Assembly: GCA_024137785.1 (NCBI GenBank)
Contig: JAHRHZ010000031.1
Span: forward strand, 13,343,992-13,407,991
DNA length: 64,000 bases
Direction: 5' to 3'
Origin: Ginglymostoma cirratum
Taxonomy: Eukaryota
Positions 2,592 through 47,070 of this stretch are shown piece by piece. Below the pieces are notes generated by a model, which made no database searches, was not told where the DNA came from, and saw only the letters and a program-made list of their open reading frames with translations. The first letter of the stretch is position 1. Every line of letters starts with the position of its first letter. The position numbers and the translations under genes were made by a program.

Positions 2592-3756
2592 TGTAGGATT
2601 GTGCAAATATCCTCATCATCTAAAACACTGGACAAGACTCTGGACTTTTCTAATATCGAAAATGCTGGGCAACATCCTGAGCTCATGGTGCAACAATACA
2701 GCACAGAGCCAGAATGATTTCTGTCTGGGATTATTGTTCACTAATTTACCCCTCCATTCTAAGAGAACAATCGATCAAACCCAACACTCTGGATTGAAAC
2801 TAACTGTTACACCTCTGGCTACGCAACACAGACAGTAATGGAGCCTCAGAGATACTGGACATTCAACTTCAATAAAAAAATACATTCACACATACTCTGT
2901 ACTATCAGGAAGAAAACTGACACCAGAAACATGATGGCAACACAGATTTGAGATTCGTGGGGCACACAGTCTGTATAACTACTAGTCCTAATCTTACCTG
3001 AGGGAGTGCCCTCTTCAACAACAAGCTTCTGCAGAAACAGTTCTGAGGAAGCGTCCCTGGACCCAAACATTAACCCTGATTTCTCTTCACAGATGCTGCC
3101 AGACCTACTGAGCTTTTCCAGCAACTTCTGTTTTTGTTTTTTGCAGAAACAGATTTCCCACAGGCTTCCAGGCCCAACAAACAGCTTCAGAACCACAGAG
3201 GCTGAACAGAGAAGCTGAACCAAGGGCATCATCACAACAAAGATCATCCGACAGGGGAGAAGCCAATGACGCAGTATCCAAACAAGAGCTTCCAGACACA
3301 GACCTGTTCCGAACCGAGCGGCAAGAATCTCAGCAACCAGATGCACTTTAAAACTATGTTCTCCTCATGTGGTGAGCTTAAATTCCTGAGACCCCAAGGT
3401 TTCCCCAGGGAGGGGAAGGTGGCTGGCGACAGTGCAGGGACCCAAATGGTAGGAAGCCTGATTAAAGTTTCTGTGATTGAAACTACTATTTAGCTTCTAA
3501 TAGTGTTTAACCTGTTTTTAATTTAATACTGTATTTAATTACTGTTCTTTATACAGTTGATTGTGTCAATTTCATTGTTTATTACATTTGCCTTTATTTC
3601 TTGTATTATACTTACCTTTTGTGTATAATAAACATAGAGATTTGTTTGCCCTAAAACACCCGTCTACTGCCTTCTTCATTTCACATTCCCTAAGTAAGTC
3701 CAGTGTCAAACTGTTTAAAAATCAGCAAATTACTGATCGCAAACCAGAACGCTACA
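2592..3756 (+). mobile_element. Solo LTR
   Basis: TGTAG...CTACA inverted termini; 4-bp TSD CATA (2588-2591 and 3757-3760); AATAAA near 3626; interrupts an L2 copy. Confidence 0.75.
3041..3141 (+). mobile_element. Penelope-derived short end module with degenerate hammerhead core, nested in the LTR
   Basis: CTGAGGAAG...acccaaacatt followed by cagatgctgccagacc; 11-bp TSD TGCAGAAACAG (3030-3040, 3142-3152). Confidence 0.75.
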
Positions 3757-3760
3757 CATA

Positions 3761-4380
3761 CAAGAACACTTATTCCCAGCTCCCTAACTTCACACAGCTT
3801 TGTCCCTCTATCAGCAGCAAATGAACTGACACTTTCATTCATGACTTAATTGTATCTAGACTCAACTATTCCAGTGCACTTTGGGGTGATCTCCCTTATA
3901 TTCCATGCTCTGTTAACCAGAGGTTATCTTAAAATCCAATGCCCATGGCTTAACTCACACCAAGTTCCATTCCTCTGTCACCCCTCAGCTTACTGACCTC
4001 ACAAGCAACATTTTAGAATTATTTTCCTTGTTTTCAAATCCTTCACATCTCCCTCTATGCAATTTCCTCCATTGTGGACTCATTTAACACTTGCCTCTTG
4101 TGGGTCTCTAATTTTAGTTCCAACACCATTGACGGTATGTCTTCAGTCATCTCGGCTCAGAGCTCTAGAATATCTCCTTACAACTCATCATCTCTCTACT
4201 TCACTTTCCTTCTTTAAAGCACTCCTTAAAAGCTCCCTCTTTGACCAAGCTTTTCATTACCCAAACTACTTTTTGTTGATGTACCTATATGATACATTTT
4301 GCTTCATAATACACTGGTGAAGCAACTTGAGGTGTTTCATTAAAATAAAGGTGCTACATAAGTATAGTTATTGCTGTTGT
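3761..4380 (+). mobile_element. L2-like LINE 3' end
   Basis: ctagactcaactattcc...aaaggtgctacataagtatagttattgctgttgt, a typical L2 tail; related copy at ~43870-44345. Confidence 0.7.
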
Positions 4381-5124
4381 TATATCATATGCCATTCTTC
4401 TATATGTACGTAAAAACATTCTCAGATACGAAATTCCCATAGATTTGAATGAACCGCTTAGATCCATCCCTAACAGACCCAACGGTTAAAGGCAAGAATT
4501 TCTTTTTAAAAACACCTGGAATAAGTTGTTTAAAAAAGCATACCTTGAATTAAAACTGAAAATCATAATTAATTAATGGTGACCAGACAATATTAGCATT
4601 CTATGAAATCCCTTAACTAAAACACAACCTGAAAGCTCACTCACAGCTAACTTTTTATCATTCTGTGTACTGAACATGCAAGTACTCAGTTGAATGGTTT
4701 ATTTAGTAGGGGTATCAAACTTAAGCTTCTTTAAGAGTTTCATTCAATATTTGAGTAGGTGTAATTGGACAGAAATGAAAGCAAGCGATCCCAAGAGGTT
4801 TTTATTTTCATTTTGGTCGTATGAGAAATGGAGAGTTCCCATATATAGATAAAGTTAAATAGAATTTTATAGCACATGAGTCTGCTCCCTTCTTACTTGA
4901 TTTATCAAGATATTCTTCTGTTCTCTCCCTAATACTCTGGGCTAGCTCTCTGTTGAATTCATTTTTGTTATTTCCTTCTCACACCTCCATATAATAATAA
5001 TTGCATATGCTTCCCACTCTTGGTTAAATAGGCTTCACCTTAATTATATACAGAATTTGATTTTGGATATCTCATATTTATGGCCCCTAATTGTAGAATC
5101 TCTTTAAGTAAGATTATGTGCATA

Positions 5125-5765
5125 TGAACATACGATTCAAAAACAGGGACTTACCTTTCATCCCTTACAGCCTGCTCCACTGTTCAATAAGATCATGGCT
5201 CATCTGAATGTCACCTCAAATCTACTTTCCCACCAATCCCTGATAATCTTTCAACCTCTTTCTTATGAAAAATCTAATCACCAATCTAATATAAATCTAA
5301 TCCACTAACTTGATTAAAAATACTCAAAAATTTACTTCCACCACAGCGAGTTCAAAAGACTCACAATCCTCTGAAACAAAAATAAATTGTCTAACCAATG
5401 TTATAAATAGGCTACCCCTGATTTTTAGAAGTGACCCCTAGTTGTAGATTCTCCCATAAAAGGAAACATCCCACACACATTTACCCTGTCAAAACCCTTC
5501 AGGATTTTGCATGTTTCAGTTAAATTACCTGTTATTCTTCTAAACTCAAATGGATACAAATTGAGTCTATCCAAGCTTTCACTGTAAGACAATTTGCCCA
5601 TTCAAGGTATTAATCTCATAAATCTTCTCTGAACTGTCTAAAACACATTCACTTTCTTCCTTAAATACTGTACATAATACTCCTGGTGCAGACTCACCCG
5701 GAATCACTAAACAAGACTTTTGCATTCAATTCCCTGTGCGATGAATGATAACATTCTATTACCTT
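5125..5765 (-). mobile_element. CR1-like LINE 3' fragment (old)
   Basis: cagcctgctccactgttcaataagatcatggct 3' motif plus decayed RT C-terminus; related to 47600-47900 and 55480-56475. Confidence 0.65.
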
Positions 5766-5799
5766 GTACCTTTCATGTCTTCTAGGAGAAACAGAGTAA

Positions 5800-46121: not shown

Positions 46122-46305
46122 TGTGGAAATTGGGGAGAGTGTCAGAGGAGAAGATGTATACATAATCCAAAGTGGCTGTGGGGAAATCAATGATAATTTG
46201 ATAGAGCTGTTAATCATGATCAATGCCTGCAAGTTTGCATCATCATCTCGAGTCACTGCAGTTATTCCTTGTTTTCCCTATGCTCGACAAGACAAGAAGG
46301 ACAAG
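46122..46305 (+). CDS. PRPS2: PRPS2 coding exon 2
   Basis: [61 protein letters not shown]; cag/gtaac; 184 nt. Confidence 0.97.
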
Positions 46306-46583
46306 GTAACGAAGAATTTTTTTTGGTCATTTGTTTCTTATTGGATTGTGAGAGAGGTGACAGGAAACTGATGCATAGTGTGATACATAGAACAAATGTG
46401 TAACCAAACAATAGCAGGCTCAGTTCAGATAGTTGTGATTTGTTTCATTTATGTGTGGGTAAAAGTTTGGCTGTGTGAGGTATAATTGAAAAAAATGTTG
46501 TGGGGGAGAAATCCTAATTCCATTAACTGCACAGGTAATGTTTTTGATCTGGCAACTGATGAATGACAATTCCTGGACTACTT

Positions 46584-46612
46584 AAAAAAAAAAAAAAAAA
46601 AAAAAAAAAAAA
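46584..46612 (+). repeat. Poly(A) run of ~29 nt
   Basis: Homopolymer. Confidence 0.9.
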
Positions 46613-46867
46613 TTTTGGGATATTCTGTTGAGATTTGCCTCTTTTTCATCAAGATGATTGTTTTAAAACAGTGGCTTATGAAAAAGAACATTTCCAAAGC
46701 ATGTTTTTGTAATACAGTTTAGAATTTTGTGAAAATTGCAGTACAGAAGAGACCATTTTGGCCCATCATTTCTGCAGAAACTGAAAAATGGGTCACCCAG
46801 CCTAATCCCACTTTCACATTTGGTCTGCAGCCAGACACTTACCACAGTTAAGGTTCATATCTAGGCA

Positions 46868-47070
46868 TAGTAGGAACTGCAGATGCTGAAGAATCTGCGA
46901 TAACAAGGTGTAGAGCTGGATGAACACAGCAGGTCGAGGAGCAGGAAAGCTGACGTTTTGGGCCTAGACCCTTTCTGAAGAAGATTCTAGGCCCCAAACG
47001 TCAGCTTTCCTGCTCCTCTGATGCTGCTTGACCTGCTGTGTTCGTCCAGCTCTACACCTTGTTATCTCAG
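46868..47070. mobile_element. Palindromic Penelope-derived insertion nested in an old CR1 fragment
   Basis: Two inverted arms; 9-bp TSD ATCTAGGCA (46859-46867, 47071-47079). Confidence 0.88.

Follow-up and report, generated by a model that had tools for sequence, protein, structure and literature searches.

The 64-kb window analysed here, from contig JAHRHZ010000031.1 of the shark Ginglymostoma cirratum, contains dispersed copies of a module (a repeat of about 100 nucleotides [nt] carrying a hammerhead ribozyme core), remnants of a Penelope-like element (PLE), and exons of what we take to be a PRPS-type gene. Profiles searched with nhmmer identify 14 module copies in 11 insertions, six belonging to subfamily A and eight to subfamily B. 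Every copy matches the profile of its own subfamily at E<=5.6e-22, a low value being expected by construction as the profiles were built from the window copies. The next unrelated match has E=0.088, and the same profiles find nothing below E=2.5 in the reversed window. A first-pass annotation of this DNA had proposed a dozen dispersed sites sharing one module, and all 12 of the sites that it named are module copies. Its division into two subfamilies is borne out by identities of 78-87% within A (leaving out the old 24080 copy) and 72-95% within B, as against 48-70% between A and B for the same copies. The profiles of A and B cross-match at E values from 2e-9 to 0.24; thus the two subfamilies are homologous, and the homology covers the whole module with the same architecture. 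The pattern CUGANGA-N8-16-GAAACGUH occurs three times in the window compared with 0.01 expected from shuffles. A search of the window for the hammerhead family in Rfam (E<=1) detected none; two Rfam matches to microRNAs are both the fold-back at 46868.

Subfamily B is physically joined to a PLE. At 30220-31452 the module comes after reverse transcriptase (RT) C-terminal sequence, a CX4CXXC linker, a GIY-YIG endonuclease, and a pyrimidine-rich untranslated region (UTR), and at 32189-33047 it comes after an RT piece, a gap, and the same UTR, inside a 10-base-pair (bp) target-site duplication (TSD). Both of these elements linked to an open reading frame (ORF) are 5'-truncated. The upstream UTR is kept in three B copies, two of which also keep RT or GIY-YIG remnants, and the B mini-copies are co-linear with the 3' end of the longer copies. 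Sixteen longer proteins share 68-77% identity with the window endonuclease, the named ones being from Rhincodon and Stegostoma. The endonuclease piece by itself has no Pfam match to GIY-YIG; its homolog P0001 matches both RVT_1 and GIY-YIG in Pfam, and homolog P0003 reads through into the same hammerhead frame. A CX2-5CXXC linker is present in 89 of 97 longer homologs. This linker is a mark of the Neptune and Nematis clades (PMC8557442), and Neptune and Poseidon are widespread vertebrate PLE clades (bioRxiv 10.64898/2026.07.22.740005). The linker motif and the vertebrate host make Neptune the likely clade of the element.

The insertions themselves also resemble those of PLEs. TSDs of 10-15 bp are significant in five of the 11 insertions (p<=0.007 against 300 random positions), borderline in two (p=0.037 and 0.056), and absent from four, which qualifies the first-pass statement that several of the short copies are flanked by TSDs. 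Inverted pieces occur in five insertions (8840, 19718, 20956, 29848, and 46868), and a tail of about 35 nt is present in some copies only, giving two alternative 3' ends. An inverted copy and a 30-40-bp tail have been described for PLE insertions (PMC8557442). Subfamily B shows the tested marks of endonuclease-positive PLE insertion, namely linkage to RT and GIY-YIG, truncation, inverted copy, tail, and variable TSD. No full-length or partial-tandem copy with two pseudo-long terminal repeats (pseudo-LTRs) is present in the window, and viral contigs contained no relative. The family is very abundant in relatives, with 23,233, 47,425, and 11,528 contigs of three sequencing runs matching one 261-nt copy; the best-matching runs share 0.20 of words and hence derive from relatives, and no RNA run is among those listed.

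The linkage to RT, GIY-YIG, and UTR, the co-linearity, and the TSDs support the proposal that the repeats are extremely 5'-truncated Penelope copies with a pseudo-LTR hammerhead. The B copies are very probably truncated PLE ends. The same origin is probable, to a somewhat lesser degree, for subfamily A, where the link rests on homology to B because no A copy is tied to an ORF. Two results speak against it in A: no A copy in the window is joined to coding sequence or UTR, and a protein search with the A frame, which gave one match of 80 amino acids among nine candidates, found no PLE protein that contains it. As a whole, the repeats are likely to be 5'-truncated, mostly decayed PLE 3' ends (pseudo-LTR), the minimal type I hammerhead included. 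The GIY-YIG element at 30520, which had been suggested as their mobiliser, must be discarded in that role: what is left of it (30220-31452) is a frameshifted 3' remnant, incapable of mobilising anything.

The hammerhead core is readable in ten copies; 8836 and 9309 were excluded for the assembly gap, 24080 for its decay, and the inverted arm at 46868 for starting inside the core. A full core together with an intact helix II is found in two of the ten, 35737 (+) and 32282 (-). The majority of the copies are decayed ribozymes. Only 32282 also keeps a four-pair helix I, that of 35737 being a single pair, and copy 31328 has both core boxes, but its helix II is broken. A whole core is seen in none of the A copies; the best one, 9309, has its 5' box inside the assembly gap. 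The majority sequence of each subfamily holds all 13 core positions. Within the subfamilies, the core changes at the same rate as the body (4/45 [8.9%] versus 26/249 [10.4%] in A, and 8/97 [8.2%] versus 42/473 [8.9%] in B), which indicates that the copies are not under selection. Between the majority sequences of A and B, however, the core is identical at 13/13 positions compared with 37/62 downstream (Fisher p=0.003). Equal decay within the subfamilies and identity of the core between them argue that selection acted on the parent elements. Tempering this conclusion, the core does not differ significantly from the best-kept downstream block (24/32; p=0.08).

In contigs of the relatives, N7 varies between A and U at 11-48%, and core positions show only CpG-type change, at no more than 8%. 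Variants of at least 15% affect 0/13 core and 19/108 UTR positions among the 40 of 42 rows listed, a difference that is not significant (p=0.22). Helix II is 87.3% paired over 11 rows (with the A3043 row misaligned by one column), and compensatory covariation between the subfamilies was not observed: the eight shark rows show only a one-sided U-A/U-G change and a loop change, with no compensatory change among shark copies. A two-sided change (C-G to U-A) at one pair is found only in the non-shark loci L002 and L005. These are among five metagenome loci (three independent) that have no DNA match to the window and possess the same core with other stems, and one of which adjoins a related endonuclease. 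Helix I is paired in 70.5% of cells over the 11 rows, some of the cells being host flank; for subfamily A, four to five pairs are plausible from two copies. Folds of the whole module are no better than shuffles in four of four cases (z -0.31 to 1.12), and in the minimum free energy (MFE) structure of the dimer, helix II is paired between strands, which is not the active fold. For the minimal PLE hammerhead, weak cleavage was seen with the dimer and none with the monomer (PMC4209133). Judged by sequence, the parent elements retained a minimal hammerhead like the one described in that paper.

It is highly improbable that the host has retained some copies, such as 35737, as working ribozymes. Two copies do hold the full core, and 35737 is in sense orientation in intron 1 of the PRPS-type gene. 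However, youth accounts for the two intact copies, which at 95% are more alike than any other pair, the core decays at the body rate, 35737 is without helix I, and minimal hammerheads were inactive as monomers (PMC4209133).

In subfamily A (9325-9440), a pyrimidine tract and CAG immediately precede a conserved ATG that is followed by an open frame; the arrangement looks like a splice acceptor and lies a short way downstream of the cleavage site. B has the ATG, without AG. The predicted protein P0114 includes the open frame of A. The frame following the conserved ATG is open in four copies and has a stop in 31328, and the search with the A frame found no PLE protein starting at this ATG. In one metagenome locus, L005:637-735 is an antisense hammerhead mini-insertion of about 98 bp just past the apparent end of a putative ORF of another retroelement.

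The 5' breakpoints, when plotted relative to the core as had been proposed, are clustered. Seven of the ten readable sense-strand 5' ends are 0-8 nt upstream of C3, in the copies with C3 at 3043, 19718, 20967, 27572, 31989, 35737, and 46975. The other three are about 270, 765 (as assembled), and 1,100 nt upstream, and 0/10 are at the cleavage site. Under three exponential truncation models the clustering has P<=9e-8 for an interval chosen post hoc; three of the seven ends (19718, 27572, and 31989) are weakly defined, and a count of 5/10 instead gives P<=7e-5 under the same models and post hoc interval. All three independent non-shark loci also begin within about 10 nt upstream of C3 (L005 at -6 with a 12-bp TSD, L002/3 at -4 or -20 [ambiguous], and L001/4 at an inverted junction). 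The template for integration is likely to have been an uncleaved RNA with a fixed start or stop at the front edge of the hammerhead because the 5' ends are 0-8 nt upstream of the core and none is at the cleavage site; copies with a whole core would have come from uncleaved RNA.

Several observations weigh against a fixed end. The 5' ends of A are defined by TSD or junction only, one firmly and two weakly, and the non-shark loci were selected for a whole core. In contigs of relatives, summed depth falls across the core from 2.1M to 0.9M in run X14, but there is no drop in runs X1 and X12, the depth of the upstream UTR being at least that of the core. Contig depth gives no copy number, and the drop was seen in one of three DNA-type runs of relatives. 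Run X23, for which the RNA type is a guess, has 527 contigs with body depth greater than core depth and was set aside, its contigs showing neither ends nor level.

The element's own reverse transcriptase and GIY-YIG endonuclease would have laid down the copies from uncleaved RNA. The endonuclease would nick the target, and reverse transcription would begin inside the RNA, at either of two positions downstream of the hammerhead, comparable to the Anolis element PAc, whose tail is delimited by internal RT start sites and whose template is predominantly uncleaved RNA (PMC11167929). Priming at both nicks would give the fold-back forms. If transcription of the element begins at the hammerhead's 5' edge, synthesis primed at the initiation site of the first pseudo-LTR would run off the RNA after about 100-135 nt, and long copies would result when the downstream pseudo-LTR of that tandem transcript is primed instead. 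Run-off at the RNA 5' end is a tentative explanation of the clustering, with a probability somewhat short of even. A Penelope transcription start site is located inside the pseudo-LTR (PMC2377424). Counting against the explanation, the start in the Drosophila virilis Penelope is 46 nt upstream of a 75-nt intron ending at helix I and not at the hammerhead (PMC4209133, PMC2377424). Slightly less probable is the possibility that a Neptune-type run-off complementary DNA (cDNA) of about 100-135 nt, resembling strong-stop DNA and integrated alone, explains the thousands of solo minimal hammerheads in animals. If this were true, the RNA start of the element could be mapped from DNA alone, the ribozyme would be shown not to cut the integration template, and the same by-product would arise in sharks and unrelated animals.

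The fixed 5' end might instead be a stop, caused by cDNA snap-back, by microhomology capture after the 5' arm of helix I, or by a stall at the upstream C-rich tract. In favour of a stop, fold-back junctions are found inside or at the core (19718, 20967, and 46975), the 5' end tracks helix I in unrelated lineages, and in both intact copies the MFE structure is a hairpin that closes at U4. A stop is nevertheless rather unlikely, as the predicted cDNA hairpins are no stabler than shuffles in seven of seven sequences (z -1.58 to +2.02), and a structural block in the RNA would be expected to halt the enzyme on reaching the fold's 3' edge, not its 5' edge.

The uniform size and start of the minis could also suggest a non-autonomous family resembling short interspersed elements (SINEs) or retrozymes, transcribed from mini masters of its own and using the PLE protein in trans. 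Subfamily A is present in the window only as minis, non-autonomous PLE derivatives have been published (PMC8557442; bioRxiv 10.64898/2026.07.22.740005), and one X14 contig has a 41-nt go-back over the core. Against such a family, 0/9 rows of Tandem Repeats Finder output overlap a module (no tandem array in the window), and the minis have no sequence unique to them, those of B matching the 3' end of longer copies throughout. Mini 35737 is 95% identical to the RT-linked 32282, which implies that minis and long copies share masters. Moreover, the 5' ends precede the cleavage site, where units cut by the ribozyme would begin. A separate family is thus improbable, and the retrozyme-like units offered as the other alternative in the first-pass annotation are not supported. 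Animal non-LTR retrozymes are like the window copies in that they are non-coding, have a type I hammerhead, and are related to PLE pseudo-LTRs, and they have been reported in one chondrichthyan genome (PMC7229834; bioRxiv 10.64898/2026.07.22.740005). These retrozymes are tandem, with a ribozyme per unit and circular RNA, whereas the window copies are dispersed single or inverted sequences of about 100-200 bp with mostly dead motifs. In view of the lack of tandem arrays, membership among the non-LTR retrozymes fails.

With derivation from truncated PLEs preferred, the closest published relatives are the minimal type I hammerheads of metazoan PLEs (PMC4209133), which likewise lack helix III and have an extra nucleotide before helix II, a G10.1-C11.1 pair, a palindromic 15.2-16.2, a short helix I, and a position in the pseudo-LTR. 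They too were mostly dispersed single motifs ascribed to truncated PLEs, and close opposite-strand pairs were already noted in 2014. Helix II in the window differs in having 4-5 bp, and sharks and clustering of 5' ends are not reported in the available portion of that paper. The insertions share with Neptune-clade units strong 5' truncation, an inverted 5' copy, an optional 30-40-bp tail, a variable TSD, the CX2-5CXXC linker, and GIY-YIG at the C terminus; they differ in that the window is without a full-length or partial-tandem copy and the clade is assigned by motif only (PMC8557442). PAc has two 3' ends downstream of the hammerhead and inserts that contain the uncleaved motif, as here, but it is a member of the Poseidon clade and its ORF starts at helix II (PMC11167929). 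In the window, the conserved ATG, a candidate ORF start only, follows the cleavage site by about 25-30 nt. The elements and hammerheads are of a published kind, to which the shark subfamilies add members. No published account of these shark families or of the fixed 5' end was found in a literature search that did not cover Repbase, Dfam, Lunse et al., and the bioRxiv supplements. The one lead to retain is the fixed 5' end, as the function of the PLE hammerhead is described as unsettled (PMC8557442). Starts before, and never at, the cleavage site provide a genomic argument for an uncleaved template that agrees with the one in vitro system.

Table 1. Module copies and associated PLE insertions in the 64-kb window
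Feature	Position	Strand	Description
A mini-copy	3041-3141	+	Starts 2 nt upstream of core C3 (3043); core decayed; TSD 3030-3040 / 3142-3152
A fold-back insertion	8840-9432	both	Minus copy 8840-8908; assembly gap 8909-9308; plus copy and tail 9309-9432; 15-bp TSD 8827-8841 / 9433-9447
A copy with tail	19597-19728	-	C3 at 19718; 9-10 nt missing at cleavage site; 10-nt inverted core piece at 5' junction (19719-19728); decayed TSD (p=0.037)
B mini-copy	20956-21059	+	13-nt inverted tail 20956-20968 fused to sense copy starting at C3 (20967); 13-bp TSD 20943-20955 / 21060-21072
Old, strongly decayed A copy with tail	23950-24080	-	Core not recognisable; no TSD
A mini-copy	27470-27576	-	C3 at 27572; begins some 4 nt upstream; decayed core; TSD also decayed (p=0.056)
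B copy with about 270 nt of 3' UTR	29848-30195	-	3' core box deleted; inverted pseudo-LTR, head-to-head with plus-strand remnant 30220-31452
5'-truncated, frameshifted PLE remnant (likely Neptune type)	30220-31452	+	RT C-terminal part; CX4CXXC linker 30782-30808; GIY-YIG endonuclease to about 31170; UTR; hammerhead 31328-31355 (helix II broken); tail
Half core	31453-31464	-	4 nt + CUGAUGA-A; abuts tail of 30220-31452 remnant; absent from the first-pass list
Decayed B mini-copy	31895-31997	-	C3 at 31989, with an uncertain 5' end some 8 nt upstream; no TSD
5'-truncated PLE insertion	32189-33047	-	RT piece 32930-33047; gap 32529-32928; UTR; module; 10-bp TSD 32179-32188 / 33048-33057
Sole complete minimal hammerhead	32282-32255 (core)	-	4-bp helix II; 4-bp helix I
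B mini-copy with tail	35734-35866	+	Starts 3 nt upstream of C3; core and helix II intact (35737-35764), helix I lost; no TSD found; sense in host-gene intron 1
B fold-back	46868-47070	both	Inverted copy and tail 46868-46971 joined inside hammerhead to sense copy (C3 at 46975); TSD 46859-46867 / 47071-47079

The half core at 31453-31464 and an older endonuclease piece at 31820-31897 are both on the minus strand and may belong to one older element, an arrangement that suggests insertion of one PLE into the pseudo-LTR of another around 31453-31897. A repeat common to 567, 10833, and 55830 (likely a SINE) interrupts this older PLE at about 31657-31766. The whole 2.2-kb cluster of PLE pieces is flanked by a 38-bp direct repeat (29807-29843 / 32026-32063; 89.5% identity, E=1e-5), which may be a long TSD or a local duplication. 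Both 400-N assembly gaps (8909-9308 and 32529-32928) are inside PLE insertions, one of them at the centre of a fold-back. Long interspersed element RT remnants, likely CR1, are present at 57641-58702 (-), where the ORF matches RVT_1 at E=8e-33, and at 12422-12886 (+), which has no Pfam match.

The exons of the putative PRPS-type gene, as placed by phosphoribosyl pyrophosphate synthetase motifs, are at 33438, 46147-46276, 52756, 54136, and 54568-54646. The insertion at 32189-33047 is in a GC-box-rich stretch (32030-33440), about 390 nt upstream of the ATG at 33438 and divergent from the gene, and it likely splits the PRPS-type promoter region. A 33-bp GC-rich tandem repeat of 4.6 copies is located at 33116-33268.

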